DNA from: an uncultured archaeon | GTDB lineage: Archaea > Iainarchaeota > Iainarchaeia > Iainarchaeales > DATDZZ01 | Assembly: GCA_964373795.1 (NCBI GenBank) | Contig: CAYJVY010000005.1 | Coordinates: 37,813 to 69,812 of the forward strand | Direction of reading: 5' to 3' | DNA length: 32,000 nt | In this document: positions 1-25,879 of the stretch, piece by piece | How positions within the stretch are numbered: the stretch's first letter is position 1 | Layout of the letters: each line of letters starts with the position of its first letter | Notes under the pieces: model-generated | What the model was told of the DNA's origin: nothing | What the model saw: only the letters and a program-made list of their open reading frames with translations | Databases searched by the model: none | Translations under genes and position numbers: made by a program

Positions 1-3000
1 ATATTTTGCTTGGAACACGAATTAAAGCTGAAGCAGAATTAGAAGGGTTTCAAAAAATTTTAAGAGAACTTGAAGTAAAACAAGCTGATTTAAAGTTAGA
101 AGTTCAAATGCCTTCAACTGAAATTAAGAGAACTCAAATAATTAAATTAGTTCAAGGAGAAGATGAAAGTCTTTTAACTAAAAAAGCAACTTATAGTTTG
201 AGTTGCACTAATTCTGAAGGAAAAGTAGAGCCTTCAACTGGAAGTGTTTCAGATGGAGTAATTAAAGCTGTTTCAACAGAGAAATGTGGAAGCATTTTAT
301 TACAGGCTTCAGCAGATGGATTTATTTCAGTGCAATCATTTGAAGTGAAAAATGCTTCAGAAAAAGTTTTATTAAAAGAAGTAGAGGTTTCAACTGGAAA
401 AATTAAAGTAACAGTTAAAGACGATGAACAAAAATCTTTAGACGGAATTAGAATTCAAGTATTCAATGAAAGCGGAGTAGAAAAATTCACTGAATCAAGT
501 GTGCAAGGATTAAAAGTTATTCCTGAAGTGCAAACAGGAGAATACTATGTAAGTGTTTCAGATTCAAAAGATGTATTCGGTACACAGAAAAGCGTTGTAA
601 AAAGAGTGAACAAAAATCAAGAAACTCTTTTTGAATTTGTTTTAAGTAAAAGCATTAAAGGAAAAATTAATGTAAAAGCAATAGATGATTCAACTAAAGC
701 AGAATTAAGTAATGTAAAAATTCAGTTATTCAAGAAAGGAGAAAACACTCCAATTTCAGATGATTCAACTAAAGCAGGGGAAAAAGTTAGTTTTAGTATT
801 ACTGAAAAAGGGTTATACATTGTTAGAGGTTTATTGGAAGGATTTTTGTATGGAGAAGAAGAAGTTGATTTAAGTGAAGGAGAAAAAGATATTACTTTAA
901 AGCTAGTGAAAGCAACTCCAGAGAATAGTGGAAAAATAGTTGTAAGCATTAAAGATGAAGATAACAAGCCAATTGAATCAGCAGAAGTATTTGTATTTGA
1001 CGGAGTAACTGATTTCTTGTATCCATTTGAATCAAAGTTAAGTGATGCAAACGGAGAAACTAGATTTAGTGGATTAAAAGAAGGAACTTATTTCATGAAA
1101 GCAGTGAAAGGAAATTTGGAAGCAATTTCTTCAAAGAAAAAAATTGATATTAGAAAAGAATTTCCTTTTGAAATTAAAATGCAAAGAGGAAATGGAACTC
1201 TTTCAATTGAAGTAGTTGACTTGGATAACAAATCAATTCCTAATGCAAGAATTCAATTACATTTGGTTGGAGAAACAGATATAAAAGAAGCTTTAGGAAA
1301 CCCTGAAGGAAAATCAGAGATTTCTTTGAAAGGAGATTCAAGAGTTTATGTAAGGGTTTCAGCTGAAGGCTTTGCAGCATTTTTTTCTCAAGCAGTTCCA
1401 ATTGAAGCAGGAGAAGAAGCAAAAATTAAAGCAGTGTTAGAGAAAACAATTCCTGGAAGAGATCCAAAAATTAAGTTGCTTGGAATTTTTGTAGATGAAT
1501 CTTCCCAAATAGAGATAACTGAATTAAAGCCTGGAACAAATTATATTGCTAGACTGCAAGTAAAAATTCCTGAAAACGCTGATTACAGAAAAGTAGGAAT
1601 TCATTTTAGAACAGGAAAACTTCCTTTAATGGAGCAAGACAATATTTTAATTAAAGAAGTAATTGCTCCAAACGCAGATGTAAGAAAGGGAACAACATTT
1701 AATCCTCCATTAGGACAAGCAATTGATTTAAAGAATATTTCTTTTGCTGAAGCAAAATGGGCAAACGTTGTATTAAGAGATGTAGAAAAAGGAGTCTACA
1801 ATATTGCTGTAAGTTTAAGAGTTAAAACTCAAGTAGTGCAAGGAGATGACTTGCCTTTTTATTACAGGGTTTGGGCGGAAACTCCTTCAAAAGAATTTTT
1901 AAGAGATCCAATTGATTCAGAACTAGGAAATGCTAGAAGCACTTCAACTAAAGAAGAATTATATGCAGAAGCGTATAGTAAAAGACAGTCAGCTGGCTTG
2001 CCATCTGTTTGTGATGAAACATTTTGTTATTCAGGGGAAAGAATTCTAGATTTAGAGGATAAGAAATTCAAACTAGTTCCATATGATGTAAGCGTTTTTG
2101 GAGTGCATAAATTCTTTTTCGAAATAACAAATAATAGTGAAACAGTTCACGATCGCGCGGAGATTAGAATAAAGAATTTTGTTGAAGGAAAACTAGTGGA
2201 TGATGCATTAGAATTAATTGATTACAAAATAGTGAATGCAGATGCAAAAGAATTCAAGTCTTCAGGAATTTCATTAAACAAGTTGCCTGAAATAGAGTTA
2301 GGAAGTTATACTAGAAATAAAACAGTTAAAGGAGAAATAACTTTTATTCCAAAAAAAGTTGGAAGAACTAATTTACAGTTAGAAATTGTTAGCGGAATAA
2401 GAGTTGGATCAGATGTAGGAGGATCAAAGGTTTTTGAAAAAATTATTCCAATAAATGTTTTAGCAAATAAGAAATTAAAGCTTGAATTAAAGCCAAGCAT
2501 TTTACCTTCATTTATTGATAACAAGGTTGAAGTAAAAGTAACAGATGAAGAAAGCATTACTTTAAAGAATGTAAAATTAAGGGTTTCTAAAATCACTCCA
2601 GCAAATGTGAGAATAAAAATTGGAGAATTTTATTCCAATGCAAACGGAAATGCTTTTTTCACTTTGCCTTCTTCAAGTCCTGGATCGAAATTCATTGTTG
2701 AATCAGAGTTAACTGGATTTGAGTCACAGAAAACTGAGGTAAAAATTGCTTCAGAAATCGTTGCATTTGATCCATTGCCCCCAAATCCATTAAAATTAGA
2801 GTTGCAAACAATTGGAATAGATGAAGACACTGCAACAATTAAAGCAACTAATTTAATTGATGCTCCATTGAAATTAAAGAAAGCATTTGTTTCAGGGTAT
2901 TTTAAAAGCTATTTAGATGAAGCTGCAATGAATAGATTCTTGCAAGGATTTGTTGAAACAACTGAGTTAAAAAAAGACGAAGAACAAAATTTGAGTTTAT

Positions 3001-6000
3001 TGAAAGCAAAACTAGTTAATGCATTACAATTATTTGAACCAGATAAAGTTAAAGGAGAAATAAATTTAGTGTTTGAATCAGTGAAACTTGGAAAGACTTG
3101 GGCTTTCAGCATTCCATTTGAAGTAAGCGTTGAAATAGGAAAAGGTCCTTCAGCAGATAATTGCTTGGTTTTAGAACCAGTTCCATTGTCAAGCATTCCT
3201 AAATGGAATTCAGTTACTCAAGGGGAAAGAATTGCAAATGAATTCATTTTATATAATTCTTGTAAAATTAATGGCAAACCAGTTGAAGTAAGAAACTTGA
3301 AAGCAGGAATTGAATGGAAGGGAAACAAGATTGGAGATGTGCAGTTAACTTTAACTGATCAAGAAGAACATACAGCTGTTCCGCCTGAAACTTTAAGAGA
3401 AGGAGAATTCACTAATCCTTTTATTGAAATAGTTAAAGCACTTCAAAAAGGAAGTTCAGGCCCGCAATACACTGGAATTTTGTATTTCACTCCAAAAGCA
3501 GGACATGAAGGAGAGGATACTTCTTTCACTGTAAAAATTAGAGCAGAAATTGGAACAAATCAAGGCCCTAAAGAAATTTCCACTACTCAAGACATTACTG
3601 GAAACATTAAAGTAATTAATTTAAAGGACTGTTTAGAGTTAACCCCTACCCCAGAAGAAGGATTAAAGATTCCAGCTACTTCTTTAGAAGGAGAAGGATT
3701 TTTTGAAATTGATTCAACTAAATGCGGCCCTGCAACAATTCAAATAAGTATTTGCAGAGGAGACGATGGTTGTAGAGGAAACCCTCAAATAAAAGAAGGC
3801 GGATTAAGAGTTGAACCAAAAACATTTAATTTAAGTAAATCAAAGCAAAAGCAAAAAATTAAGTTAAAAAAAGAAGAAGGAATTCCAGGAATTTACGGAG
3901 TAACAATCTTTGCTTCTCCAGGTGGAAGTAATTTTGTTCCAGTGAAAACACTAGATGTATTAATAGAACCAAATTTAGATGAACATTATTTTTGGTTAGA
4001 CAAATATGAATTCAGCGTGATTGGAAGAGAAGGAAAAGATTCAACTGCGTTGTTTAACACTCAATACAAGGAAAATGTTTCAGTTGAAGCAAAAAGAAAA
4101 TATCATGGCCAAGCAGCAGGAAATAATGCAACAAAAGCTTTTTGGACTGGAGCAATTGCAGGAGTTGGAACAGGAGCTGCAACAGTTGGAGCATTAATTG
4201 CAGCAGAAGCAACTGTTCCAGTAATTGGATGGACAGCAGCAATTGTAACAATAGTTGTATGGGCAGCTGTTTCATTTTTAACTTATCAAAAAAATAAAGA
4301 TAAAGCAAACGAATTAATTACTAAAAACTTTGAAGACTATGTAATTGAATTAACTTCAGATAGAAGAGATGTATTAATTGAAGGATTAGATAATAAAATT
4401 AAAGCTGAATGGAATACAAAATACAATAATGTTTTCTCTGATTCAAGAACTGGAAAAGTAACCCAAATAAATGCATTAAAATTTTTAAACGATGGAAATC
4501 TTTCCAAGCCTCAACTAAGTTATGGAATACTAAACGTTAAAGCAATTGAACATATTCATGGAGATCCAACTCATAAAGCTGCAAGAGTTTTATGTGGAAA
4601 CAGCGATTTTTGGCATTTCAATATTCCAAGTTCTTGTAGCGGTGCAAGAGATGAATTAGTTTCAAAGAAATTCCATGTAAGATTTAAAACTCAAGAAGAA
4701 CCAGAGCCATTGCCTGAATTAAATTTTGAAACATTTGAATGCAAAGCAGGAGCTTTAAGAGGGGTTACAGGAAAAGGAGCTAATCCAAAAATTAAATTGG
4801 ATTGGGATTGGGATAAAATTAAAGTTGATTCATGTGATGCAAACAATCCTGAAACATTTTACTGTGATTCAACTCAGTTTTCAATTTCTTTAGTGAAAAG
4901 ATTAAATAAATTAAAAGAATTTTTCGAGAGAAACCAAGGAGTATTTGAATGCCCTCCTTCAATAAGCGATGCATACGATAAAGCTAACAATCAAGAATCA
5001 AGTAATGTAGTTAAAAAAGACTTTATTGGAATTTCAAAACTTGAAACAAAATTCTATTCAATTGAAAACGATGCAAACGCAATTGTATTCTTAGACAATA
5101 AAACAACTTCAGATCAATCAATTGATTTAACAGTAAATTTGAAAACACTAGACAATGAAGTAATTAAAGATGTTTGCGAGAAAAAAGCAATTGCATTAAA
5201 GCCTGGAACAAATAAAGTTGGATGTGAATTTAAAGCAATTCAAAAAGGAAATTACTTTATTGAAGCATTAATTACTAATAGTTCAACTCAAAACTTGGAT
5301 CCATTTGAACCAACTATTTCAATAATAGTTCAAGATGAGCCTTTAACTTCAACTGTAAATTCGACTTGTAAAGTAATTAAAACAACTGAAGACTTGCAAG
5401 GATCTCCAATAATAATGGCTTTCATTGAAGCACAAGAAAAAGCAGGAAAAAAAGTAGAATATTCAACTGATACTCCAACAGAGGATTGGATTAATAATAA
5501 AGAAGAATTATTGAATACAATTAAATTTGATGCATTTTTAATGAAGGACGGATATTCAAGTGATTTCAGAAAAGACTTCATTAGATTTTATACTACTCAA
5601 GCACTCCCTAAAGCTCCAGACTACTTTGATAACACTACTGCAGGAAAAGGAAGATTTAAAGATTTCTTTGAAGACAATGAAAAACTTGTTTTCACTCAAA
5701 AGTTTTTTGAAAGAAATTCAACTCTTGATTCGCCTGGAAGATATAGAGTTGAATTAATGGGTTACTTTAAAGATAAATGGGAATTCTTTGATTCTCAAGG
5801 AAAACCAAATGCATTAATGATTGTATCATTTTACAGGTTAAACGATCCACAACCAAACTCTCCATTCTATTCCATGCCAATAGATGGATTAGTGGGATTA
5901 GATGGAACAAGTCTTGAAAGACAAGGATATGGAACTCAATTCTTAAACAAAAGCGATCAAATAGCTTTCAATAAAACTCTTGCAACTCAAGCAGCTAAAA

Positions 6001-6794
6001 CTTATGCAGATGCTGGAAGCAATGCAATTGCAAGGGTTTCAACTCAGGTTGGCGCGGATTACAGAAAACTAAACTCTGATTTAGGTTTTAGAGGAAATTT
6101 ATTAAACATTATTAGAAGTCCAAGCGGAGAAATGGAATTAGATTATTCTCCAAATTATGCTACTCCAGTAATATTGAAAATGAGTCATGCAATTGATCCA
6201 AATAAATTCGGAGCATACTATGTATTAGAGGATTCAAGAAAAGGAGGAGTAGAAGTAGGAGGAACACTAAATTACTGGCAAGGATTAGGAGCATGCATTG
6301 ACTTTTCAGGCAAACCAGTATTTGAAGCATTTGATTTTGCTCCTGATAGATCTGCAAAAGCTGAAGACAGAATTCCAAACTGGGAACAATCTTATACAAC
6401 TCAATGGAATGAATCAATTAAGGAAGGAGATGTTTATTTAAGAACAGAGTTTTACACTCCTATTGGCTCTACTGCAACTCTAAGATTAATTCATCCAACA
6501 ACTAATGCAAAATTCATTTCCTCTAACACAAACGATAAAGGCGAAAGCACTGTAACACTTAACGGAATTAATGGAATGGAATTCAATAACCCAACTGCTG
6601 CAAACAGGATTTCCTCAATTCAAGACATTTTAAGTTTAGTTGAATCAGGAAATGTATGTGTAACAAATAATGGCTTGCAATCAAGGTATTGGTGGAATCC
6701 AAAAAAATTATTCAACCAAGGACAAACAAAACTAGAAGTAATTGCTACAGGACTTGGAAGAGATTCAAATGCTCAATATAGATGCATTGGGTAA
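1..6794 (+). CDS. Giant surface/secreted protein, 5'-truncated at the window edge (at least 2262 aa visible). It has an N-terminal array of roughly 90-aa CarboxypepD_reg/PEGA-like beta-sandwich repeats, Cys-paired middle and C-terminal regions, and an internal double hydrophobic segment.
   Basis: The frame stays open for 6.8 kb in roughly 30% GC DNA, and there is no stop between position 3 and the listed start, so the gene continues upstream. Repeats of the type 'GKIxVxVxDxxxxxLxxxxIxLF...G.Y.V' recur about every 90 aa, at roughly nt 396-1440. N-x-S/T sequons are abundant. The protein is colinear with the next ORF: CDANNPETFYCDSTQFS/CDANNEKAVYCDATQFS, LERQGYGTQF/LNRQGYGTQF, SPNYATPVILKM/SPNYATPVLMKF, LVESGNVCVTNNG/LVESGDVCVGNNG, ICRGDDGCRGN/ICGGDSDKCRGN. 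Alignment to that paralog suggests about 90 or more N-terminal residues lie outside the window. Confidence 0.9.
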   Translation, partial: ILLGTRIKAEAELEGFQKILRELEVKQADLKLEVQMPSTEIKRTQIIKLVQGEDESLLTKKATYSLSCTNSEGKVEPSTGSVSDGVIKAVSTEKCGSILLQASADGFISVQSFEVKNASEKVLLKEVEVSTGKIKVTVKDDEQKSLDGIRIQVFNESGVEKFTESSVQGLKVIPEVQTGEYYVSVSDSKDVFGTQKSVVKRVNKNQETLFEFVLSKSIKGKINVKAIDDSTKAELSNVKIQLFKKGENTPISDDSTKAGEKVSFSITEKGLYIVRGLLEGFLYGEEEVDLSEGEKDITLKLVKATPENSGKIVVSIKDEDNKPIESAEVFVFDGVTDFLYPFESKLSDANGETRFSGLKEGTYFMKAVKGNLEAISSKKKIDIRKEFPFEIKMQRGNGTLSIEVVDLDNKSIPNARIQLHLVGETDIKEALGNPEGKSEISLKGDSRVYVRVSAEGFAAFFSQAVPIEAGEEAKIKAVLEKTIPGRDPKIKLLGIFVDESSQIEITELKPGTNYIARLQVKIPENADYRKVGIHFRTGKLPLMEQDNILIKEVIAPNADVRKGTTFNPPLGQAIDLKNISFAEAKWANVVLRDVEKGVYNIAVSLRVKTQVVQGDDLPFYYRVWAETPSKEFLRDPIDSELGNARSTSTKEELYAEAYSKRQSAGLPSVCDETFCYSGERILDLEDKKFKLVPYDVSVFGVHKFFFEITNNSETVHDRAEIRIKNFVEGKLVDDALELIDYKIVNADAKEFKSSGISLNKLPEIELGSYTRNKTVKGEITFIPKKVGRTNLQLEIVSGIRVGSDVGGSKVFEKIIPINVLANKKLKLELKPSILPSFIDNKVEVKVTDEESITLKNVKLRVSKITPANVRIKIGEFYSNANGNAFFTLPSSSPGSKFIVESELTGFESQKTEVKIASEIVAFDPLPPNPLKLELQTIGIDEDTATIKATNLIDAPLKLKKAFVSGYFKSYLDEAAMNRFLQGFVETTELKKDEEQNLSLLKAKLVNALQLFEPDKVKGEINLVFESVKLGKTWAFSIPFEVSVEIGKGPSADNCLVLEPVPLSSIPKWNSVTQGERIANEFILYNSCKINGKPVEVRNLKAGIEWKGNKIGDVQLTLTDQEEHTAVPPETLREGEFTNPFIEIVKALQKGSSGPQYTGILYFTPKAGHEGEDTSFTVKIRAEIGTNQGPKEISTTQDITGNIKVINLKDCLELTPTPEEGLKIPATSLEGEGFFEIDSTKCGPATIQISICRGDDGCRGNPQIKEGGLRVEPKTFNLSKSKQKQKIKLKKEEGIPGIYGVTIFASPGGSNFVPVKTLDVLIEPNLDEHYFWLDKYEFSVIGREGKDSTALFNTQYKENVSVEAKRKYHGQAAGNNATKAFWTGAIAGVGTGAATVGALIAAEATVPVIGWTAAIVTIVVWAAVSFLTYQKNKDKANELITKNFEDYVIELTSDRRDVLIEGLDNKIKAEWNTKYNNVFSDSRTGKVTQINALKFLNDGNLSKPQLSYGILNVKAIEHIHGDPTHKAARVLCGNSDFWHFNIPSSCSGARDELVSKKFHVRFKTQEEPEPLPELNFETFECKAGALRGVTGKGANPKIKLDWDWDKIKVDSCDANNPETFYCDSTQFSISLVKRLNKLKEFFERNQGVFECPPSISDAYDKANNQESSNVVKKDFIGISKLETKFYSIENDANAIVFLDNKTTSDQSIDLTVNLKTLDNEVIKDVCEKKAIALKPGTNKVGCEFKAIQKGNYFIEALITNSSTQNLDPFEPTISIIVQDEPLTSTVNSTCKVIKTTEDLQGSPIIMAFIEAQEKAGKKVEYSTDTPTEDWINNKEELLNTIKFDAFLMKDGYSSDFRKDFIRFYTTQALPKAPDYFDNTTAGKGRFKDFFEDNEKLVFTQKFFERNSTLDSPGRYRVELMGYFKDKWEFFDSQGKPNALMIVSFYRLNDPQPNSPFYSMPIDGLVGLDGTSLERQGYGTQFLNKSDQIAFNKTLATQAAKTYADAGSNAIARVSTQVGADYRKLNSDLGFRGNLLNIIRSPSGEMELDYSPNYATPVILKMSHAIDPNKFGAYYVLEDSRKGGVEVGGTLNYWQGLGACIDFSGKPVFEAFDFAPDRSAKAEDRIPNWEQSYTTQWNESIKEGDVYLRTEFYTPIGSTATLRLIHPTTNAKFISSNTNDKGESTVTLNGINGMEFNNPTAANRISSIQDILSLVESGNVCVTNNGLQSRYWWNPKKLFNQGQTKLEVIATGLGRDSNAQYRCIG

Positions 6795-6816
6795 GAAATT
6801 AATGAGTGAAAACTAA

Positions 6817-9800
6817 ATGCCTTTAAACGAAGAATCTTTCATGGCTCCAGCTCCGGAAAATAAGTTACTTGAATTATTGAAAGAAAAAAAAATACTGATT
6901 GCAGGAGTAATAGCTGTAATTGTTTTAATTGCAGTAGCTTATTTTTTTGTCTTGCCTTTGCTTTCACAAAAAAATTCAAATGTAATTCTTTCATTAAAAG
7001 ATCAAGAAGGAACAATTCTTCCTTCAACAACTGTTTCAATTAAAGTTAATGAAACTGTAAAAAATTTTTCAAGCGATTTAAAAGGATTAATTCCTTTAAC
7101 TGTTCCATTGAATGCAAAAATAAGTGTTTCAGCTGAATTAGATGGATTTGAAAAAGTTAATCAAAGTTTGACTGCAAGCAATGCAGAAATGAGTAAAACA
7201 ATTACTTTTTACAAGATTTCAAAGCTTTTAAGTAAAACAATTGTTTTACAAAACCTTGCAGGAGAAATGATTAACAAGGAAGGGAAAATAAATTTTTCTT
7301 GCTCTAATTCAAAAATCACTGCACCTCAACCAATTGACACAACAACAAGTGGAGCAATTAGGGTTACGCCTCCAGAAGGATGTGGGGATTTAATTGCAGA
7401 AGTAATAGTGAAAGGATTTGCTTCAAAGGATTCAGTGAAAATAGTTAATGCAACTGAAGTAATAGAGTTAAGCGCTGAAAAACCTAAAACAGGAACTATA
7501 AAAATTTCAGTTAAAAACAAGGCTTCAGAAGCATTAAATGGAATTACTGTAAAACTTTTTGCAGACAGCGGAGTAATTAATTCAGTTATTTCAAACACAG
7601 GAATAGCAGAATTTAATGAAGTAGAAGTAGGAGAATACTTTGTTTTAACTGAATCAAATCCAGATTATGTTAGCGGGCGAACAGAAAAATTTCAAGTAAA
7701 AGAAAACGAAGTAACTGAAAAAAACTTAGTGTTAGAAAAAGAAAGAACTGCAACACTAGAATTTGAAGTAACAGATAAAAACAGTCAAGCAAAAATTTCA
7801 AACGCAAAAGTCAGAATTGAATTGCAAGAAAAAAAGTTTTTGGAAGAAAAAAATTCTGACAAAGACGGAAAAGTTGTATTCACTTTATTTGATGTAGGAA
7901 AATTTAAAGTAACTGTATTACATGAAGAATTTTTATTTGATGAAAAAGAAATTCAAGTCAACAAAGGCGAGAATAAGGAAAAAATTTCTTTAGAAAAGCT
8001 TTCCCCTGAAAACAGTGGAAGAGTCTTAGTTACAGTTAAAGATGAAGACAATGAAGTAGTGGAAAACGCTAGAGTAAATATTCTTGATGCGAAAACAAAG
8101 TTTTTGTATCCCTTGCCTAAGGTGTATTTCACTAATGCAGAAGGAAAAGTAGAGTTTTCAGGAGTAAAAGAAGGAAAATATTTTGTAAGAGTTTCAAAAG
8201 CAAGAACTGAAGCTGACTCAAAAGCATTAAATGTAAGCAAAAGAGGAATAACAGAATATGAAATAAAAATGGTTATAGGAGAAGGAGTTGTAAGCATTAA
8301 AGCAGTTGATGCAGATAAAGCTCCAGTGCCAAATGCTTCAGCTGAATTCTTTGATGAAAAAGGAAAATCTTTAGGAAAAATTGATTTAGGCCCAGAAGCT
8401 GAAAGAGATTTCACTACTAAAGCGGATAAAAAAGTTTTCATTCGAGTTTCTGCTTCAGGATATAGTAGTTATGTAACTTTATTACATGAAGTAATTCAAA
8501 ACAGAAAAATAAATGTTTTAGCTCAGTTAGAGAAAACAATTCAAGGAACAAAACCTTCAATTGATTTTATAGGATTATTTAATTCAACTGATTCAGATAA
8601 AAGAATTGAAAAACTTGAAGCAGGAAATGCTTATATTGCAAAATTCCAGTTAAAGATTCCAAAAGGATTAAAGCTAAAAAATGCAGGAGTCTTTGTTAAA
8701 ACAGGCGAGGATTCATTAGTTCAAAACGATAATATTTTCATTAAAGCAATTAATGCTCCAAACTCTTCAAAGATTAGGGGAACAACTTTTAACGAGCCAA
8801 AAGGATATGCAATTGATTCACAAAACTTAACTTCAGAAAACGCTAAATGGGTTCAAATAATTTTGCAAGACCCTGAAGAAGGAATTTACAATATTGCAGT
8901 AGAATTAAGTGTAAAAATTAGAACTGTTCCAGGGGAAAGACTTTCAATTAATTACAGAGCATTTGCTGAAAACGATGCAAGAGAAACTTTAAGAGATCCT
9001 GAAGACAAAGAATTAGGTTTAGCGGAAAACTCTGCAAACAAAGAAGGCTTGTATGCTAATGCAACTATTTTAACTTATTTAGAAGGACAAAAAGAGGAAT
9101 GCACTGAAGAATTTTGTTACGGAGGAGTAACATTAGAGGAATCAGTTTCAAGGCTTACTTTAAGACAACAGCCATTTGAAGTATTTGTTTTTTCAGAAAA
9201 CAAATTATTTTTCTATTTAATAAATAATTCTGCAAAAGATTATTTAGATCCAGAAATCAGGTTTAAAAGTTTGGATAAAGCAATTAAAATTACTTCATAT
9301 AAAATAACTGATGCTTCTGCAAAACAAGTAAGCAAAAACAATCAAGAATTATTTGAATTCAATGAAAAACTTGGAAACTTTTCCAAAAACAGAGCAATTA
9401 AAGGAGAAATTGATTTACAAGCACTTGACCCCGAAGAAAAAGAATTAAAGCTTCAAATAGTGAACAAAGGAAACATTGTTTTTGAAAGAGAAATAAAATT
9501 TAATGCAAAAGTTTCAAACAAATTAACTATTAAATCATCTCCAACATTTTTGCCTGCATTCAAGAAAAATGTTTTAAACGTTGAATTAATTGATGAACAA
9601 GAATTAGGTTTAAGTAATACTAAAGTGAAATTCAAATTAATTTCTCCTGAAAGAATTGAAAGATTCATTGGAAGTGAGTTAACAGACGGATTAGGAAAAG
9701 CTGTATTCAAAATAGGAAATTTAAGTCCTCAATCAAAACTCAAAATCGAAGTAGAAAAAGCAGGATATCAATTCACTCCAGTACTAGTTCCAGTGGAATT

Positions 9801-12800
9801 AGATTTAGTTGACATTACTCCTTCAGAGGTAAGCTTGGCTTTAGAGTCTTTAGGAATGAGAAGAAAAGAAAAAACAGTTGAAGCATTAAACAAAATTGAT
9901 TTACCTTTACAAATAACTGATGCAAGACTAATAGGAGTGTTTAGGCAAGTAGATGTAACTGCAATGGAAGGACATTTGAAAAACAATGTAGTAGGAAAAA
10001 TTCTCTCTCCAGGAATTCCAGAAAAAATCAAGCCATTAATTGAAGTAAGCATTTCAGAAGGATTACAAGAAGACTTAGAATCAGCTTCCTATGTTGGAGA
10101 AATTTTGTTAGTGTTTTCAAATAAAACAATTGGAAAGCAATGGCTGAAAAGAATTCCATTCAAATTAGATTTAGGTTTAGGAGGAGAAATAAATAATGCT
10201 CCATGTATTTTCTTTGATACTTCAGAAAAAATTGAAAAAACTATTTTACAGTCAAGCTTTGAAGAAAAATTCACTATAGTTAATAGATGTAAAAACACTG
10301 CAGGAAACAGTAAACTGCAAAACTTGAAAGCAAAAATTAATTGGACTGGAAAAGACGGGCCAATAGGAATAGTTTCATTAGAAGTAACTGAAACTGCAAC
10401 TCAAAACAAGGTATTCAATCCATTAATTGAAGGAGAAGAAATAATTTTTGCAGCTCCGTTTAGAAATGAAAGTGGATTAGATAGTTCAAGTTATTCAGCT
10501 ATTTTAAGTTTCACTCCAAATGAAGACACAATAAATAAAAAAGCAGAATTTCAAGTAGAGTTTTTCGGAGAAGCTTTAACAGATCAAGGAAAAGAAATTA
10601 TTAGATCAAAGCCAACTCCTTTAACAGTAAAGTTATTGAATACTAATTTACAGAACTGCATTAAATTTGATACAGAAGAACAAAGAGGAAGAGTTTTATT
10701 AAAACCAGATGCAAATGAAGCAATCTTTAAAGTCGATTCAAGTGAATGTAAAAACGTGGAATTAGAGTTAAAGATTTGTGGAGGAGACTCAGATAAATGC
10801 AGAGGAAACGCAGTAGATGGAGGAATAAAAGTTGCTCCATGGAGTTATGGAAAAATTTTAGAAAAAGAAGTTTCATTCAAGGTTTCCAGGCCAACAGTAG
10901 AATTTGTTCCAGGAATTTATGGAATTGAAGTATTTGCAAGACCTGTGCAAAAATCTGGCGGCACTCCTCCATGGCAATTAATAGGAGTAATTGATGCAAT
11001 TCTTGATGTAAAAAAAGAAGATACAGATAAATACCTGAATTTAGAAAAATATGAATTCACTTTAGTTAATCCAACGAAAAAAGATGAAACAGCTTTATTC
11101 AATGAAAGATTAATGGAAAATGTTGATGTAACAGCTGATTACTGTGCATGGGATAAAGCAAAAAGATATGCAAACACTTTTGTAAAAATAGGAGAATGGT
11201 TTGATGAATTAAACGAATCTCCTACTGGATGGATAATGTTTATTGCAGAAATAGGAATCGCAGCAATAGTAATCGATGTAGTTCTAGATTTATTAGATCA
11301 AATATTTGGAACTGATTGGGCTGACGGGTTTTCAAAAATCTTAGGAAAACTAGAAATATTAGATGACTGTGAAGACAGAGATCACACTGGAACACTTCAA
11401 GACTATGTATTAAATTTAGTGGAAAATGGAGGAAGTACAAAACTTGTTTCATTAGAGGGAAGAGTTAAATCAAAACCAGTTATAGGTCCAGCAGGAGAAG
11501 CAAGAATTTCAAGGCCAAATGATTTTCCATTAGAAAAACTTGGAATTGAATTGGAAAATAAATCTCTTGAAGAAGGATTAATTCATTACGATATTTTGGA
11601 AATAAGTGGAACAGAGCATGTAAGAGGAGCAAGGCCTTACAGTGGCGGTGCACATTTAAAGTGCAGAGATGGATTTGGTCCATTCAATGTTAGAGGAGCT
11701 TGTGGAGGTTATTCTACTCGCACTAAAACAGAAAAATTTCATGTAAGAATTAACACTATTTCTCCTACTCCAAAATTAAGAGAAATTAGATTAAATGAAA
11801 TTTCTTGTATTGGAGATGGAAAACAAGGAAAAACAGGAAAAGATGCTCTTCCAAAAGTAAAGTTAAACTGGAGCTGGGATGAAAAAACTCAAAACGGAAT
11901 TTCAATTAATGAATGCGATGCAAACAATGAAAAAGCAGTTTACTGTGATGCAACTCAGTTTTCAATAATGTTTGCAAAAAGATTGAATGCAATAAGTGAT
12001 TTTTTAGAGAAAAACAAAAATAATTTAACTTGCCCTACAGACAGTACTTCAAAAACTGAGGAAAAAAATAATTCAAAAAAAGAGTCAAAACCAGTATTTT
12101 TAACTAAAGAAAAATTCGGGGCAACAGAATTTGAAACAATCTTTAAAGGAGTGGAAAACAATTTAATTGTAAGAGTAAAATATGAAAACGATTTAAAACA
12201 AAAAATTGATTTAAATGCAGTTATAACTTTAAACAAATTAATTATTGAAGCAGGAGAAGAAAGAGAAGTAAGCAAGTGTAAAAAAGATTTAAGCGTTAAC
12301 TCAAAAGACTTTGGAGTAATTGAATGCCAATTCAATGACTTAGCAAAAGATGAATACTTTGTATCTCTTTCAACTGAATCGCAAAACAAAGCTGATTTAG
12401 ATGATTGGAATCCAAAAGAAAACATAATTGTAATAAGCGAGCCAACTAGATTGCAGGGATGCTGGCTTCCAAAAACAACTGCTCCTTTAGGAGGCGAACC
12501 AACTTTAATAAAATTCTTGGAAAACTCTTCAAACATTACTTATACTGCAGACATTAATTCAAAAGAACAATTAACTAACATGCTTCACTTTAATGCATTG
12601 CTAATGAGGGATGGCTTTTCAAGTGATTTCAGACAAGATTTTGTAAATTATTATAAAAACCAGTCTTTCATGAATGCCTATCCATGGTTTTTCAATAATA
12701 CTGGTGGAAGAAATATTGAAAAATATTTTTCAGATCAAGATAGAATGAGGTTTTCAAGAAAATACACTCCTTCAAATAAATTAGACAAGCCAGGAATTTA

Positions 12801-13839
12801 TGAAATTCAAATAAGCATATTATTTGACAATGAATGGAGTTTATTTACTAATTCAGGTAATCCAAATGCAAGAATTGGGGTTACATTTAATCACTTACAG
12901 TTACCAAAACCTAATTCAGTGCTTTACTCAATGCCTTTAAATGGATTTGTTGGAAAAGAAGGCCAAACATTGAATAGACAAGGATATGGAACTCAATTTG
13001 ATGTAGTGCAAGATGAAGTAAAATTATCTGAAGGATTTGAAATAGTGAAAACCTTGAAAGATTCTTCTAGTAGTGCGTTAACAAAAGTTAAAGTGGAAAG
13101 GAAAAACGATTTACAGTCTTTAAACACTAATCCAAAGTTTAGAGGAAACTTGTTAACAATAAATAAAGTAAATGAAAACGTGAATGAATTGCTTTTCTCT
13201 CCAAATTATGCTACTCCTGTTTTAATGAAGTTTAATCAAGACAAAACTGAAAAGCCTTTCACAATGCATTACGGAGTAACAGAAGGAACTCAATTAGTTA
13301 ACACTGGAGCAAATTTAACTTACTGGAATGCAGCAGTTAACTGCTTTGACTTTGGAGGAGAACCTTTAGTGAAAAGATTCAAAGTTGCTCCTGACAGAGC
13401 TTCAAAACCAGAAGATGGATTGCCAAACCATGAAAACATTTATGCATTGCAATGGTTGAAAGCAGTTAAAGGAGGAAATATTTTCTTGCAAACAATTTAC
13501 TTTGTTCCAACAATAGGAAATTATAATTTAAAAGCAGTTTCACCTCTTTCAAATATTTTATTTTACTCTCCAGAAAAACCTACTGGCTCGCAAACAATTG
13601 AGTTAAGCGGAATTAGTGGAATGAATTTAAACAGTAAAGGCAGAACAGAAGTAGTTGATTCCTTGCAAGACATTTTTTCATTAGTTGAATCAGGAGATGT
13701 ATGCGTTGGAAACAATGGTGAAAGCTTTTACTGGAATTCTCAAAAGCTTTACACTTTTAAAAACCCTCAAGCAAACATTATAGATATTAATTCAATTGCA
13801 TTCGAAAAAGAACAAAGAAAAGAATGCATTCTAAATTAA
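6817..13839 (+). CDS. Giant surface protein (2340 aa), paralog of the upstream ORF. It has an N-terminal signal-anchor helix, CarboxypepD_reg/PEGA-like repeats, conserved Cys pairs, and an internal hydrophobic segment.
   Basis: The ORF is a 7.0-kb open frame starting 22 nt after the previous stop. The N-terminus 'KKILIAGVIAVIVLIAVAYFFVLPLL' is a single hydrophobic anchor. At least four beta-sandwich repeats are visible (GTIKISVKNK..., ATLEFEVTDK..., GRVLVTVKDED..., GVVSIKAVDAD...). Conserved islands are shared with the first giant ORF (see that entry). Confidence 0.92.
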   Translation: MPLNEESFMAPAPENKLLELLKEKKILIAGVIAVIVLIAVAYFFVLPLLSQKNSNVILSLKDQEGTILPSTTVSIKVNETVKNFSSDLKGLIPLTVPLNAKISVSAELDGFEKVNQSLTASNAEMSKTITFYKISKLLSKTIVLQNLAGEMINKEGKINFSCSNSKITAPQPIDTTTSGAIRVTPPEGCGDLIAEVIVKGFASKDSVKIVNATEVIELSAEKPKTGTIKISVKNKASEALNGITVKLFADSGVINSVISNTGIAEFNEVEVGEYFVLTESNPDYVSGRTEKFQVKENEVTEKNLVLEKERTATLEFEVTDKNSQAKISNAKVRIELQEKKFLEEKNSDKDGKVVFTLFDVGKFKVTVLHEEFLFDEKEIQVNKGENKEKISLEKLSPENSGRVLVTVKDEDNEVVENARVNILDAKTKFLYPLPKVYFTNAEGKVEFSGVKEGKYFVRVSKARTEADSKALNVSKRGITEYEIKMVIGEGVVSIKAVDADKAPVPNASAEFFDEKGKSLGKIDLGPEAERDFTTKADKKVFIRVSASGYSSYVTLLHEVIQNRKINVLAQLEKTIQGTKPSIDFIGLFNSTDSDKRIEKLEAGNAYIAKFQLKIPKGLKLKNAGVFVKTGEDSLVQNDNIFIKAINAPNSSKIRGTTFNEPKGYAIDSQNLTSENAKWVQIILQDPEEGIYNIAVELSVKIRTVPGERLSINYRAFAENDARETLRDPEDKELGLAENSANKEGLYANATILTYLEGQKEECTEEFCYGGVTLEESVSRLTLRQQPFEVFVFSENKLFFYLINNSAKDYLDPEIRFKSLDKAIKITSYKITDASAKQVSKNNQELFEFNEKLGNFSKNRAIKGEIDLQALDPEEKELKLQIVNKGNIVFEREIKFNAKVSNKLTIKSSPTFLPAFKKNVLNVELIDEQELGLSNTKVKFKLISPERIERFIGSELTDGLGKAVFKIGNLSPQSKLKIEVEKAGYQFTPVLVPVELDLVDITPSEVSLALESLGMRRKEKTVEALNKIDLPLQITDARLIGVFRQVDVTAMEGHLKNNVVGKILSPGIPEKIKPLIEVSISEGLQEDLESASYVGEILLVFSNKTIGKQWLKRIPFKLDLGLGGEINNAPCIFFDTSEKIEKTILQSSFEEKFTIVNRCKNTAGNSKLQNLKAKINWTGKDGPIGIVSLEVTETATQNKVFNPLIEGEEIIFAAPFRNESGLDSSSYSAILSFTPNEDTINKKAEFQVEFFGEALTDQGKEIIRSKPTPLTVKLLNTNLQNCIKFDTEEQRGRVLLKPDANEAIFKVDSSECKNVELELKICGGDSDKCRGNAVDGGIKVAPWSYGKILEKEVSFKVSRPTVEFVPGIYGIEVFARPVQKSGGTPPWQLIGVIDAILDVKKEDTDKYLNLEKYEFTLVNPTKKDETALFNERLMENVDVTADYCAWDKAKRYANTFVKIGEWFDELNESPTGWIMFIAEIGIAAIVIDVVLDLLDQIFGTDWADGFSKILGKLEILDDCEDRDHTGTLQDYVLNLVENGGSTKLVSLEGRVKSKPVIGPAGEARISRPNDFPLEKLGIELENKSLEEGLIHYDILEISGTEHVRGARPYSGGAHLKCRDGFGPFNVRGACGGYSTRTKTEKFHVRINTISPTPKLREIRLNEISCIGDGKQGKTGKDALPKVKLNWSWDEKTQNGISINECDANNEKAVYCDATQFSIMFAKRLNAISDFLEKNKNNLTCPTDSTSKTEEKNNSKKESKPVFLTKEKFGATEFETIFKGVENNLIVRVKYENDLKQKIDLNAVITLNKLIIEAGEEREVSKCKKDLSVNSKDFGVIECQFNDLAKDEYFVSLSTESQNKADLDDWNPKENIIVISEPTRLQGCWLPKTTAPLGGEPTLIKFLENSSNITYTADINSKEQLTNMLHFNALLMRDGFSSDFRQDFVNYYKNQSFMNAYPWFFNNTGGRNIEKYFSDQDRMRFSRKYTPSNKLDKPGIYEIQISILFDNEWSLFTNSGNPNARIGVTFNHLQLPKPNSVLYSMPLNGFVGKEGQTLNRQGYGTQFDVVQDEVKLSEGFEIVKTLKDSSSSALTKVKVERKNDLQSLNTNPKFRGNLLTINKVNENVNELLFSPNYATPVLMKFNQDKTEKPFTMHYGVTEGTQLVNTGANLTYWNAAVNCFDFGGEPLVKRFKVAPDRASKPEDGLPNHENIYALQWLKAVKGGNIFLQTIYFVPTIGNYNLKAVSPLSNILFYSPEKPTGSQTIELSGISGMNLNSKGRTEVVDSLQDIFSLVESGDVCVGNNGESFYWNSQKLYTFKNPQANIIDINSIAFEKEQRKECILN

Positions 13840-13846
13840 ACTTTAC

Positions 13847-14242
13847 TCAAAACTTTATTCTTTTTATTTCAGAAACCCTATCAAAATCAGAGTCATCTGA
13901 AGCAATTTCTTTAATTTCACGTTCCTTCATTATTGCTACATGAAATGCATCTCTGGGTTTTAAGTTATATTTTTCAATAAAATCTAAAGCTGAAAAAGGA
14001 ATCATTGAATTTACTTCAATAATATCTGTATTAGGCAAAGAATAAATGTCTTGAATTGTTTCACGCAATAGAGAGTGTTTCTTGTTTTTAATGAGAACCC
14101 AAATTACTTCATCTAATACTAAAGCAGATGTTACTGCTTTTCTTCCTTGTATAATAGATTCTTGAAGTTTTCTTGCATTTCCACCTTTTTCAGTTAAATC
14201 AAAGTTTGCTAAAATAAAAAAATTTGCGTCTAAATAAATCAT
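13847..14242 (-). CDS. vapC: PIN-domain ribonuclease toxin (VapC family)
   Basis: The 131-aa product carries the PIN acidic signature: D5 in 'MIYLDAN', E in 'VLDEV', D in 'KPRDAFH', and 'SDDSDFD' near the C-terminus. It overlaps the upstream antitoxin gene by 4 nt, as is typical for toxin-antitoxin coupling. Confidence 0.85.
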   Translation of the reverse strand: MIYLDANFFILANFDLTEKGGNARKLQESIIQGRKAVTSALVLDEVIWVLIKNKKHSLLRETIQDIYSLPNTDIIEVNSMIPFSALDFIEKYNLKPRDAFHVAIMKEREIKEIASDDSDFDRVSEIKRIKF

Positions 14243-14490
14243 CTAAATTCCTCTTCATAAAGTTTGTCGCCATAAATCCATCCAAGTTTCTTAAGGTTTC
14301 CGCCATGCTTTTTTGCTCGTTCAGCCCATTTTTTAACTAAATCATCAGATACCAAAGGATGAATTTCAAGAATGTGTTCTTTAACTTCCATTAAAACATT
14401 TCCAGATTCTTTTATTCCAAGACTTTCTCTAATAATTTTTGGAATAACTACTTGCCCTTTTGGGCCAACTCTAGTTTTAAATCTAACCAT
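14239..14490 (-). CDS. vapB: AbrB/SpoVT-type antitoxin (VapB family)
   Basis: The 83-aa product has the N-terminal swapped-hairpin motif 'VGPKGQVVIPKIIRESLGIKESGNVLMEV'. It overlaps the PIN gene by 4 nt. A TATA-like 'tatatatagtgg' (minus-strand reading) lies about 20-30 nt upstream at 14511-14521. Two palindromic aacgtt hexamers at 14533-14538 and 14546-14551 could be an operator. Confidence 0.85.
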   Translation of the reverse strand: MVRFKTRVGPKGQVVIPKIIRESLGIKESGNVLMEVKEHILEIHPLVSDDLVKKWAERAKKHGGNLKKLGWIYGDKLYEEEFR

Positions 14491-14590: not shown

Positions 14591-14956
14591 ATGCTTCAAT
14601 TAATGCCTTTATTATTTATTGGAGAATTTTTTTCAGATTTCACTTTAGTGTTAAAAATATTTGTTTTTCTTACAATTGTAAGCTTTGTTAAAAACCATGT
14701 AGGAAATAATGTTATTGCAATTGTAATAACTATTTTGTTTAGCTGGTATGCATTGTTTGTAGCATTTGCTTTTTTTGGAACAATTTACTTGCTTTACACG
14801 TTATTGTTGCTAGGAGTAAGCGGAATTGTAATTGATTTCTTTTTTGTTTCACAGTCAGCTGGACATCAAAACTTGCAAGATAATTCCCCTGTTTCAAGTG
14901 GATATGATATTGTTAAAAGACAAGTAGCATCTCGACAAGCAATGATGAGAAGGTAA
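14591..14956 (+). CDS. Small integral membrane protein (121 aa, about 3 predicted TM helices, basic C-terminal tail)
   Basis: Hydrophobic stretches include FTLVLKIFVFLTIVSFV, VIAIVITILFSWYALFVAFAFFGTIYLLYTLLLLGVSGIVIDFFFV. The TATA-like 'atttaaataaaa' lies at 14561-14572, about 20-30 nt upstream of the ATG. This is the first of five consecutive small membrane ORFs. Confidence 0.7.
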   Translation: MLQLMPLLFIGEFFSDFTLVLKIFVFLTIVSFVKNHVGNNVIAIVITILFSWYALFVAFAFFGTIYLLYTLLLLGVSGIVIDFFFVSQSAGHQNLQDNSPVSSGYDIVKRQVASRQAMMRR

Positions 14957-14963
14957 AAAAATT

Positions 14964-15308
14964 ATGAATGAAAAAGGTTTTGTTCCTCCAATGATTTTAT
15001 TAATTGTAGGCGCATTTTTAATAGTTTTAATTATTCCACCAATTTTGTTAACCTTGTTTCCCTTTGTTAGACTGATTTTCCAAATTGCAATGATTTTCAT
15101 GATTTACATTATGGTTAAAGGATATATTGGTGATGGCCCTTTAACTCTAATTATTTCAGGAATACTAATCTATTTTTTAGTTTTCAAATACACTTTGCTT
15201 ACTTCAACTTTGTGGGTTTTTCAAACACTTTTAATGTATTCATTTTTTTCAATGGTTATATGGGGAGTTGGAACTCAAACACCTCGTTTTTTTCAAAAAA
15301 GGGCTTGA
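14964..15308 (+). CDS. Small integral membrane protein (114 aa, about 3-4 TM helices)
   Basis: It starts 7 nt after the previous stop, which suggests an operon. The sequence is almost entirely hydrophobic (MILLIVGAFLIVLIIPPILLTLFPF..., LTLIISGILIYFLVF..., LLMYSFFSMVIWGVG). Confidence 0.7.
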   Translation: MNEKGFVPPMILLIVGAFLIVLIIPPILLTLFPFVRLIFQIAMIFMIYIMVKGYIGDGPLTLIISGILIYFLVFKYTLLTSTLWVFQTLLMYSFFSMVIWGVGTQTPRFFQKRA

Positions 15309-15400: not shown

Positions 15401-15661
15401 ATGGCTTCAGCTGCATACATTGCTTCGTTTTTTGACAACATATACATTGCATTACTTTTATTTATTTTAATTTGGATTTTCAGTTGGGCTAAAGGAGCTT
15501 TAGGCAGCCCAAAACTAGCTATTTTATTTGCATTAATAATTGTGTACTTAACTGTATACCAATTCCCTGAATTAGTGTGGATTGGAGTGGGATTGTTTTT
15601 GTTTGCAACATTTGGAAAAGACTTGCTTGCAAATGTTAACTTTCATCAAGGAAGAAGATAA
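15401..15661 (+). CDS. Small integral membrane protein (86 aa, about 3 TM helices)
   Basis: Hydrophobic segments are IYIALLLFILIWIFSW, LAILFALIIVYLTVY, VWIGVGLFLFATF. A TATA-like 'attataaatg' lies upstream. The overlapping frame 15582..15926 is the less likely reading. Confidence 0.65.
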   Translation: MASAAYIASFFDNIYIALLLFILIWIFSWAKGALGSPKLAILFALIIVYLTVYQFPELVWIGVGLFLFATFGKDLLANVNFHQGRR

Positions 15662-15663
15662 TT

Positions 15664-15975
15664 ATGGATGCATTTACTTTTTTAATGGCAATTGTTTTAA
15701 TTATTTTAGGAGTATCCTTTGGAGAAAAATGGATTGTGTTTGGAATAATTTTATTACTAATTTTAACTCAAAGATCAATTATTTTAAGTGTGTTATTAAT
15801 TTTTGCTGGAGCATTGATTTACATTATTCAAGCATTTGGTTTAAGTTATTTATGGCCAGTAGTAATTTTTGGATTAATTATTTTAGGTTTAATGTTTGGA
15901 ATTCAACCTCAAGAACAAGCTCCTGAAATGTGGAGTCCAGAAGGAGGAGGCGGAGGATTACTTGGCGGGATTTAA
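15664..15975 (+). CDS. Small integral membrane protein (103 aa, about 3 TM helices, Gly-rich C-terminus)
   Basis: It starts 2 nt after the previous stop. Hydrophobic segments are FTFLMAIVLIILGVSF, WIVFGIILLLILT, IILSVLLIFAGALIYIIQAF, WPVVIFGLIILGLMFG, and the tail is PEGGGGGLLGGI. Confidence 0.65.
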   Translation: MDAFTFLMAIVLIILGVSFGEKWIVFGIILLLILTQRSIILSVLLIFAGALIYIIQAFGLSYLWPVVIFGLIILGLMFGIQPQEQAPEMWSPEGGGGGLLGGI

Positions 15976-16305
15976 TTGAATTTAGTAGTACTTCTATTAC
16001 TTTTTTTAGCATTTCTTTACTTGATTTCAGTCAATGAAGTTTTTCTGGCAATTGTTCTTGCAATATTGGGAATTGTATTAATTCTTTTCCCAAAAGGAGT
16101 TCAAGAAGAAATAAAACTAGTAAGTGAAGCAAAAGGAAGTTATCCAGACAAAGAAATCTTTTTAGAAGCCGCGCATAACTTAAACAAGCATTTAATGAAT
16201 ATTGGAACTCCAAAACAAAGATATGGAGAAAAAAGCAATTTAACTGAATTAATGCCTGACAACATTAACTATTTTTTCAAGCAATTAAGAAAATTATTCA
16301 AGTAA
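15976..16305 (+). CDS. Small membrane-anchored protein (109 aa, about 2 N-terminal TM helices plus a soluble basic C-terminal domain), with a TTG start abutting the previous stop
   Basis: The TTG at 15976 immediately follows the TAA at 15973-15975. There is no in-frame ATG until late in the ORF. The N-terminus is LVVLLLLFLAFLYLISV / FLAIVLAILGIVLILF. The start-codon assignment is uncertain. Confidence 0.55.
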   Translation: MNLVVLLLLFLAFLYLISVNEVFLAIVLAILGIVLILFPKGVQEEIKLVSEAKGSYPDKEIFLEAAHNLNKHLMNIGTPKQRYGEKSNLTELMPDNINYFFKQLRKLFK

Positions 16306-16342: not shown

Positions 16343-16858
16343 TTACAACTTGTTTAAAATTTGTCTTTCAGTTTCAAGCAAGTCTTTTAAAAGTTTTTCA
16401 ATGGATTGATTTGTTCCCTTCATTTCAGACAACTTTGATTCTAGCTCTAATATTCTTGACTCGAATTGCTTTAAATCAGTTGAACTACTTTTAAGCAACA
16501 TGCTTCGCAATTCATTTAATTGCTCTGATAAATGGTCAAGCATTACTTGAGTAGCTGCATGCTTTGAATCATCTACATCTGAAAACCTTGTAGGCCCTAA
16601 AGATTCTGGTTCTTCAGATTCTGTTTCTGCTTCTTCTGATTCAGTTTCAGGTTCTGATTCTAGTTCAGGTTCAGGAGTTGCCTTTATTGCAGGAGATTTA
16701 ACTCTAGTTTTTCCTCCGCCTTTAATTTCGCTTAAAATAGTTCTAGCATCTTTTTCAGTTAACCCAGAATCGAGTAATTCTTTAACAATTTCTTCTTCAC
16801 TTAAACCTGCATCCAATAAAATTTTTGCTTGCTTTAAAAAAATTTCTTTTCCAGGCAT
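16343..16858 (-). CDS. Hypothetical protein (171 aa): small helical N-domain, acidic Glu/Ser/Pro low-complexity linker, C-terminal coiled coil
   Basis: It is an ATG-started ORF. The N-terminus reads 'AKILLDAGLSEEEIVKELLDSGLTEKDARTILSEI', the linker 'TPEPELESEPETESEEAETESEEPES', and the C-terminus is heptad-like. I recognise no family. Confidence 0.65.
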   Translation of the reverse strand: MPGKEIFLKQAKILLDAGLSEEEIVKELLDSGLTEKDARTILSEIKGGGKTRVKSPAIKATPEPELESEPETESEEAETESEEPESLGPTRFSDVDDSKHAATQVMLDHLSEQLNELRSMLLKSSSTDLKQFESRILELESKLSEMKGTNQSIEKLLKDLLETERQILNKL

Positions 16859-17070: not shown

Positions 17071-17078
17071 GAAAAAAA

Positions 17079-19039: not shown

Positions 19040-19080
19040 AAAATCATAACTATAAAGGCAATTGAAACTTAAAAAACTTT

Positions 19081-25860: not shown

Positions 25861-25879
25861 AGTGTATTTGGTGGTTTTT

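Follow-up and report, generated by a model that had tools for sequence, protein, structure and literature searches.

Tandem giant surface proteins of an uncultured archaeon and their family across the Iainarchaeota

Two adjacent open reading frames (ORFs), each encoding a protein of more than 2200 residues, open a 32,000-nt stretch of DNA from an uncultured archaeon of the Iainarchaeota, also called Diapherotrites (contig CAYJVY010000005.1 of assembly GCA_964373795.1, positions 37,813 to 69,812 of the forward strand; hereafter the window, meaning this whole stretch). They raise the question of what such proteins form at the surface of these cells, and whether the pair is peculiar to this genome. 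A first-pass annotation, made from the letters alone, had read them as tandem paralogous surface proteins and as prime candidates for host attachment. To our knowledge no member of the Iainarchaeota has been brought into culture, and the cell surface of the phylum is undescribed; giant genes of this kind, at ~7 kb each and 2-4 per genome of ~1-1.2 Mb, take up 1-3% of the coding capacity. We place the two proteins in subfamily A of a family of giant (2300-3250 aa), membrane-anchored proteins that extends across the Iainarchaeota, and read them, with roughly even confidence, as constitutive envelope proteins that would form a coat or spikes. Giant beta-sandwich surface proteins of DPANN archaea are already a known kind; what is new is the C-terminal head, for whose fold no counterpart is known, together with the stapled hydrophobic linker, the tandem organisation of subfamilies A and B and the conserved small-membrane-protein partners.

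The gene pair, its family and its position

ORF1 (3..6794, plus strand), a giant surface protein of subfamily A, has a frame that is open to the left edge of the window, with 2263 of its 2344 residues inside. It is followed after 22 nt by ORF2 (6817..13839, plus strand), a divergent member of the same subfamily that is complete, with 2340 residues and an ATG at 6817; the pair fills 43% of the window, as first noted. Comparison with P0010 (2344 aa), the full-length form of ORF1, which from its residue 82 onward matches the beginning of ORF1 at 100% identity, places only the first 81 residues outside the window, and P0010 and P0001, the latter being ORF2, are located on the same NCBI contig of 102,258 bp. 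BLASTP aligns the two window proteins colinearly over their whole length (738 identities in 2304 columns, 32%, E = 0), confirming the paralogy proposed earlier. The G+C content is even along the window, at 30-33%.

A word-indexed homology search recovered 9 matches with the full-length query and 3 with the head profile, and an exhaustive profile search using HMMER with the head yielded 784 clusters, 526 of them at E <= 1e-30. Complete members nearly all measure 2200-3250 aa and close with the head at the very C-terminal end; they are labelled either 'hypothetical protein' or 'carboxypeptidase regulatory-like domain-containing protein' under Ca. Diapherotrites, Iainarchaeum and, rarely, Micrarchaeota. 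Among the GTDB species representatives 246 genomic matches were found, almost all labelled Ca. Iainarchaeum or Diapherotrites. No description of the family was found in the searchable literature.

Gene order was read by tblastn of the window proteins in 74 retained loci, almost all from Ca. Iainarchaeum, including I. andersonii SCGC AAA011-E11, the complete AR10 genome and a second complete genome. In about 50 loci, 2-4 giants stand in tandem on the same strand, followed by four small membrane-protein genes (s1-s4), a HerA-like gene, PolB and an M24 gene (methionine aminopeptidase, MetAP); a minus-strand coiled-coil ORF often comes after s1-s4, and a second coiled-coil ORF is present between the HerA-like gene (~505 aa) and PolB. 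Giants are in tandem at the same spot in nearly every sampled Iainarchaeota genome, and the pair thereby loses the special status it had been given, since arrays of 2-4 occupy a fixed position beside PolB and MetAP across the phylum. The first-pass annotation had allowed that its view of an unusual system would weaken if such pairs were ordinary S-layer genes of the lineage: the synteny of related bins shows the tandem arrangement to be ordinary indeed, but no known S-layer family was matched. The fixed syntenic position is more in keeping with a constitutive part of the envelope than with a variable island for host interaction, and this positional conservation makes the giants probably a defining structure of Iainarchaeota cells.

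Giant genes are also carried by four contigs labelled Thaumarchaeota, Chloroflexi or Micrarchaeota (L063, L071, L060 and L062), two of which, L063 and L071, share the s1-s4, HerA-like and PolB synteny as well; errors in the assignment or labelling of these bins are the probable cause.

By clustering, the heads fall into two subfamilies, A, which holds 55 of the 55 genes directly before s1, and B, which holds most of the second- and third-last genes. Both window proteins fall in subfamily A, with ORF2 as its most divergent member, and the p-distance of ORF1 is 0.61 to the last-position genes of other species versus 0.65 to ORF2. At the DNA level the two genes have no tract in common longer than 121 nt at 74% identity, and both keep the family-conserved columns of the head (3 deviations in ORF1 and 5 in ORF2 at 69 such columns, against a family median of 2), arguing for an old duplication under purifying selection. 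A recent duplication or gene conversion was rejected on the length of the shared tract.

The host attachment proposed at first pass would make the giants adhesins, with the stalk projecting the head to bind a host or partner cell and the paralogs diversifying the specificity. Their huge size and surface location, domain types typical of adhesins (CarboxypepD_reg, SpaA, Big_1, MG-like), an optional and variable immunoglobulin (Ig)-like insert in the head and the DPANN membership of the organism are in favor of this, as is a divergence faster than that of the housekeeping neighbours (identity to other species of 28-31% for the giants, 50-53% for PolB and MetAP and 37-54% for s1-s4). On the other hand, one fixed syntenic locus is used throughout the phylum, without variable islands, and the head is the most conserved part of the chain, with dozens of invariant residues. 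Neither a diversity-generating element nor a recent duplication is present, and the phylum has members proposed to be capable of independent life, with such a lifestyle considered possible for Ca. Iainarchaeum andersonii (PMC6349945), rendering the episymbiotic premise uncertain. Surface location, membrane anchoring and DPANN membership, the last judged from relatives and synteny, hence stand from the earlier reading, while the fixed phylum-wide locus and the old duplication tell against attachment itself, which we consider unlikely, though far from negligible. The related proposal that duplication had diversified a binding surface is not supported as it stood, as the patchy conservation is family-wide and the main variable patch is the optional Ig-like insert together with the linker, not a demonstrated binding surface.

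Very large, multi-domain surface proteins have been described before, namely the SPEARE proteins of Ca. Nanohaloarchaeum antarcticus and giant proteins of nanohaloarchaea and Omnitrophota, for which cell-surface interactions were proposed (PMC10266531; bioRxiv 10.1101/2023.11.21.568195). The Iainarchaeota giants resemble these in size, surface location and occurrence in small-genome lineages, but have only generic beta-sandwiches in common with them and belong to the syntenic core of a whole phylum rather than to a lineage-specific island. This corrects an expectation: giant DPANN surface proteins need not be variable host-interaction genes.

Anchor, stalk, middle module and head

The chain begins at the membrane. 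In ORF2, aa 20-53 (6874..6975, plus strand) are strongly hydrophobic, with a Kyte-Doolittle maximum of 3.05, and an N-terminal hydrophobic anchor is found in 106 of 107 full-length relatives, full-length ORF1 among them, which extends the signal anchor noted for the complete copy to the family. Ahead of the anchor most members carry a conserved cytoplasmic leader of ~45 aa (..DLYYSLEDKYYxLLDKIxxxIPVYKIIDPIDKIVPSF; for example P0002, P0003, P0011, P0053 and P0102), which may be a dedicated targeting or docking signal. ORF1 (as P0010) and ORF2 (window 6817-6975) have short leaders without this conserved segment.

Scans of Pfam, NCBIfam, PDB sequences and PDB profiles took in the two window proteins and 17 relatives, and yielded beta-sandwich families only (CarboxypepD_reg, SpaA, Big_1, SdrD_B, bMG3/MG4, NOMO and transthyretin-like). 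CarboxypepD_reg was matched in 19 of 19 members, with PF13620 at 71.5 and 77.7 bits in the two ORFs, well above the Pfam cut-off of 32.3. Individual copies were delimited using a repeat hidden Markov model (HMM) built by iteration on the giant-protein family. ORF1 contains four complete CarboxypepD_reg/transthyretin-like repeats (aa 119-513; 357..1541, plus strand; PF13620 at 7.3e-20) and a further copy at aa 830-964 (nt 2490-2894, plus strand). The stalk of ORF2 comprises five such repeats (aa 48-605; 6958..8631, plus strand; PF13620, PF17802, PF17210 and PF02369), and a sixth (aa 905-1037; nt 9529-9927, plus strand) is placed inside the middle module. With 6 copies in ORF2, 5 in the part of ORF1 inside the window and 6 as the median across the family, the at least four repeats reported at first pass are borne out.

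The middle module of ORF2 (aa 606-1442; 8632..11142, plus strand) carries the Cys pairs 762/767, 1130/1158, 1281/1311 and 1321/1328. The pairs quoted earlier turn out to be family-wide columns (C762/C767, C1281/C1311 and C1321/C1328, in ORF2 numbering), as are C162/C189 and C1130/C1158. A PDB profile search with this module gave transthyretin-like matches at about 942-1020 only, and the NCBIfam and PDB sequence searches with the giants were empty. For ORF2 aa 606-904, 1038-1442 and 1522-2340 there is no match in Pfam, NCBIfam, PDB sequences or PDB profiles, congruent with the previous failure to assign the middle and C-terminal regions to a known family. N-glycosylation sequons number 20-27 per giant, at a density only 1.2x the compositional expectation and therefore uninformative.

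The N-terminal stalk truly belongs to the same superfamily as NOMO, a BOS complex subunit, and the SpaA/SdrD/Big_1 adhesin stalks (PF13620 at 72-78 bits, and a NOMO2 match), but six such domains amount to about 25% of the chain and the other ~1700 aa are unrelated. Bacterial alpha-2-macroglobulin-type MG-domain proteins are likewise membrane-anchored, long beta-sandwich chains, and many giants show weak bMG3 and MG4 matches. Membership was not sustained, with bMG3 at 18.7 bits versus a cut-off of 34.9, no TED or A2M families in the 19 members and no thioester domain or bait region detected. Nor do the giants belong with the Bap/RTX or SiiE/LapA-like adhesins, for which dozens of tandem Ig-like repeats and a C-terminal RTX signal would be expected: only six are present, and no RTX or type I secretion system families were found in giants or neighbours. 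Pfam scans of the giants detected no protease, nuclease or lectin domains.

The head spans ~826 aa in ORF1 (4314..6791, plus strand), as delimited by family alignments, and aa 1522-2340 in ORF2 (11380..13836, plus strand). The islands of near identity that had been seen between the paralogs in this ~820-aa region are real and general: CDANN..YCDATQFS, RQGYG, ATPV and VCV..NG are invariant or nearly so across the family. The head has eight invariant cysteines, and its soluble C-terminus is a conserved ...C-I-G. Modelled by AlphaFold with 39 sequences, the last 826 residues reached a pLDDT (predicted local distance difference test score) of 84.5 and a pTM (predicted template-modelling score) of 0.71; with 9 sequences the pLDDT was 56. 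From its start the modelled head passes through a strand-rich part, a Cys-rich helical part with CDANN..YCDATQFS, a seven-strand Ig-like sandwich, an alpha/beta part and a large beta-rich part. The Ig-like sandwich is an insert (aa ~1767-1854; nt 12115-12378, plus strand) in the region of lowest head conservation (ORF2 aa ~1750-1900), and is wholly absent from P0005.

This ~100-140-residue sandwich was the sole Foldseek match of the head in the PDB and viral models, at a query-normalised TM-score of <= 0.12; against the viral structures of BFVD only Ig-like matches or spurious long alignments were returned (TM-score <= 0.12). Any true relative of the other ~600 residues would be expected to score above the Ig-like match; the modelled head therefore has no detectable neighbour among the PDB and viral models compared with this multi-domain query, and appears to represent a fold absent from solved structures. 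The structure search suggested at first pass hence gave no match to a known enzyme or S-layer family, over the head alone. At about 820 aa, the head stands out as a large and confidently modelled domain without structural neighbour.

Could the head instead be catalytic? As a surface-tethered hydrolase or lyase of a new type it would act on extracellular polymers, with the stalk as a mere holder. Hints in this direction are the abundance of invariant polar positions in the head (D, H, R, Q, N, Y, W), the E-H-I-H-G-D..H motif that most members share and the protein and polymer degradation inferred for Diapherotrites (PMC6349945). However, G, P, C and aromatics prevail among the invariants, as is typical of structural cores, no enzyme family was matched by sequence or by the structure of the head model, and in ORF2 the motif is degenerate (E-H-V-R-G-A) although the other invariants are kept. 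We thus hold an enzymatic role to be improbable.

The hydrophobic linker and membrane topology

Between the middle module and the head lies a linker, the bounds of which were set using flanking HMMs. In ORF1 it covers aa 1366-1437 (4098..4313, plus strand) and includes a 47-aa Gly/Ala-rich hydrophobic stretch (aa 1383-1429, nt 4149-4289); in ORF2 it covers aa 1443-1521 (11143..11379, plus strand), beginning with C1443-x-W, continuing through a hydrophobic or amphipathic core at aa 1468-1499 and then reaching DDC1518ED. Both proteins hence possess the internal hydrophobic segment that was reported earlier. In subfamily A a conserved C-x-W opens the linker and (E/D)DPC(D/E) closes it, with an acidic flank (EDPCD) behind the hydrophobic stretch. 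Such stretches typically run to 45-60 residues, leaving room for two helices, with Kyte-Doolittle values up to 3.4. A strongly hydrophobic internal segment is present in 58 of 107 complete relatives, the other 49 keeping the same Cys-paired head, and in 59% of subfamily A versus 13% of subfamily B; variants without hydrophobicity are Trp/Phe-rich amphipathic loops.

The linker cysteines, counted on 74 subfamily A members, are informative for the topology. The first and the last co-occur (50 members with both, 19 with neither and 5 mixed; Fisher p = 8e-13), and the number of cysteines is even in 69 of the 74 (binomial p = 2e-15), both p-values overstating independence as the representatives, at <=50% identity, are still related. 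All relatives have a homologous head with eight invariant cysteines, and the head must therefore reside on the same, oxidising side of the membrane family-wide. The co-variation of the bracket cysteines, the even count and the acidic flank in turn place both halves outside the cell, with the linker as a probable stapled hairpin or loop. Together with the N-terminal anchor, this makes the giants membrane-anchored proteins that lie almost entirely outside the cell. The simplest reading of the linker is a loop or hairpin whose ends would be disulfide-stapled outside the cell and which would provide a second membrane contact, an assignment that is putative for ORF1 and ORF2 themselves. As a Cys-stapled loop it represents a testable topological motif. 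A single-pass internal transmembrane helix with a cytoplasmic head was rejected, considering that half of the family is devoid of the segment, that eight head cysteines are invariant and that the linker cysteines co-vary with even parity.

Two variations of the linker were observed elsewhere in the family. A CPxC motif is present at the linker mid-point, between hydrophobic halves, in the subfamily A proteins P0004, P0013, P0015, P0016, P0027, P0041 and P0123, and in neither window protein. In some paralogs, such as L003 1069-9990 (2973 aa) and other subfamily B members, the linker is swapped for very long Cys-rich or coiled-coil inserts of up to 861 residues and 74 cysteines.

Disulfide-bracketed loops that are Gly/Ala-rich and hydrophobic, or Trp/Phe-rich and amphipathic, recall fusion loops, and subfamily A always adjoins the small membrane-protein genes, near the HerA-like gene. 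The stapled loop might accordingly enter the membrane of another cell and, with s1-s4 and the HerA-like protein, constitute a contact or transfer apparatus. However, 45-60 residues of such hydrophobicity would enter the producer's own membrane during export, the strongly hydrophobic loop is absent in about 40% of subfamily A, and the HerA-like protein is without Walker A and missing from some loci. No class II/III-type fusogen fold (fusexins, HAP2, viral glycoproteins) in the PDB or BFVD was matched by the head model, the part of the chain covered by Foldseek. We regard such insertion as very improbable. A broader variant, in which the loop of subfamily A acts on another or an additional membrane and forms, with subfamily B, s1-s4, the HerA-like pseudo-ATPase and the new-fold head, an Iainarchaeota-specific machine for cell-cell contact or exchange, has a slim chance.

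The envelope reading and the neighbouring genes

How may the constitutive envelope proteins we favor be built? The N-terminal signal anchor, uncleaved or late-cleaved, would put the chain into the membrane. Outside the cell, a stalk of five transthyretin-like beta-sandwiches would lead to a beta-rich, disulfide-paired middle module with the sixth sandwich. The subfamily A linker, hydrophobic or aromatic and with disulfide-stapled ends, may form a hairpin that dips into or spans the membrane, and the chain would end in the conserved head of ~820 aa. Tandem paralogs of subfamilies A and B would assemble as constitutive parts of the envelope, forming a tall coat, or spikes that stand above the S-layer or pass through it, possibly on a membrane platform of the four small paralogous membrane proteins encoded downstream. 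The analysis itself establishes the architecture, the placement of both halves outside the cell, the synteny across the phylum and the lack of a match to known families; the constitutive role, the hetero-assembly and the involvement of s1-s4 are what we infer.

Several findings weigh against this picture, beyond the relatedness behind the cysteine statistics. ORF1 is without either bracket cysteine, and ORF2 has the staple cysteines (C1443 and C1518) but acidic residues in its hydrophobic core. The giants also evolve ~2x faster than the neighbouring housekeeping genes, which also fits adhesins under diversifying pressure. Finally, the synteny runs on into the unrelated housekeeping genes PolB and MetAP, and gene order alone is therefore no proof of a functional tie to s1-s4 or to the HerA-like protein. 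A link of s1 and s2 to the giants, beyond mere adjacency, is best indicated by a subset of loci where giant, s1 and s2 stay together while the remaining context is different.

Archaeal S-layer and surface glycoproteins (Haloferax csg, Sulfolobus SlaA/SlaB and the MSTP/DUF1608 type) are, like the giants, extracellular, tethered, beta-sandwich-rich and lineage-conserved, with SlaA and SlaB paired side by side. Could the giants then be the canonical S-layer lattice proteins of the Iainarchaeota? Their conservation at a single locus across the lineage is in agreement with such a role, as are the membrane-anchored, extracellular chains rich in beta-sandwiches and the 20-27 sequons in each. Nevertheless, sequence homology to these glycoproteins is absent, as is structural homology, the latter for the head only: none of the S-layer families (MSTP/DUF1608, S_layer_N/C, SlaA/SlaB, csg) appeared at E <= 1 in Pfam or NCBIfam, in the PDB sequence and profile searches or in Foldseek of the head. 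The architecture differs as well: hydrophobic segments occur at the N-terminus and inside the chain but nowhere else. The giants hence combine an N-terminal anchor and an internal stapled loop with a soluble chain end, in place of the usual C-terminal transmembrane segment or PGF-CTERM, and have a head of no known fold. In addition, they are 2-3x larger, and 2-4 paralogs of >2300 aa would be atypical. A different S-layer protein, of 1039 aa, has been proposed for a Diapherotrites archaeon (bioRxiv 10.1101/2024.05.28.596244, supplement), which makes a further envelope layer or spike a likelier role for the giants than that of the lattice itself. We give the lattice role little credence. As envelope proteins, the giants offer a concrete target for cryo-electron tomography, metaproteomics and antibody-based enrichment of the phylum.

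Downstream of ORF2, a VapBC-type toxin-antitoxin pair, recognised by Pfam, occupies 13847..14490 on the minus strand (PIN gene, 13847..14242; MazE/AbrB-like gene, 14239..14490). It sits between ORF2 and s1, is absent there in all related loci examined and is outside the conserved module. The small membrane-protein genes follow on the plus strand: s1 (14591..14956), s2 (14964..15308), s3 (15401..15661) and s4 (15664..15975), identified by synteny, and s5 (15976..16305), seen in the window. Small membrane-protein genes are found directly behind the last giant, in the same order, in 43-56 related loci. The s1-s4 proteins are mutually paralogous, with 3-4 transmembrane helices each, a common three-helix core and a shared '..LG..L..' loop, and s1-s5 have no Pfam or NCBIfam match; as an uncharacterised set, s1-s4 are of interest as a possible membrane platform of the giants.

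Synteny likewise identifies a coiled-coil ORF (16343..16858, minus strand), the HerA-like gene (17058..18587, plus strand), a second coiled-coil ORF (18599..19123, minus strand) and PolB (19310..21739). The HerA-like protein has 509 aa, a weak DUF87 match (2.2e-6) and weak profile matches to four HerA structures in the PDB. No GK[ST] is conserved among its 34 orthologs, where the equivalent position reads GGxxxxR, and an active HerA ATPase as neighbour was rejected on this ground. The arCOG01314-type predicted secretion system of Makarova et al. (PMC5898192) was likewise rejected, with none of its components present. A promoter and terminator scan of the window found fewer sites than in shuffled sequences; the consensus used is bacterial, and the result was put aside.

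Further along the window, a second PIN-domain gene (PIN_2, 26110-26523) comes after an overlapping 83-aa ORF (25862-26113) without Pfam match, which may be its antitoxin. At 30066-30153, Rfam detects an 88-nt tRNA (54.5 bits) that ARAGORN does not report, and an intron or a long variable arm is possible. Finally, a gene of the Asp/Glu racemase family (26884-27579, E = 1.5e-34) is located beside tRNA-His and the histidyl-tRNA synthetase gene.

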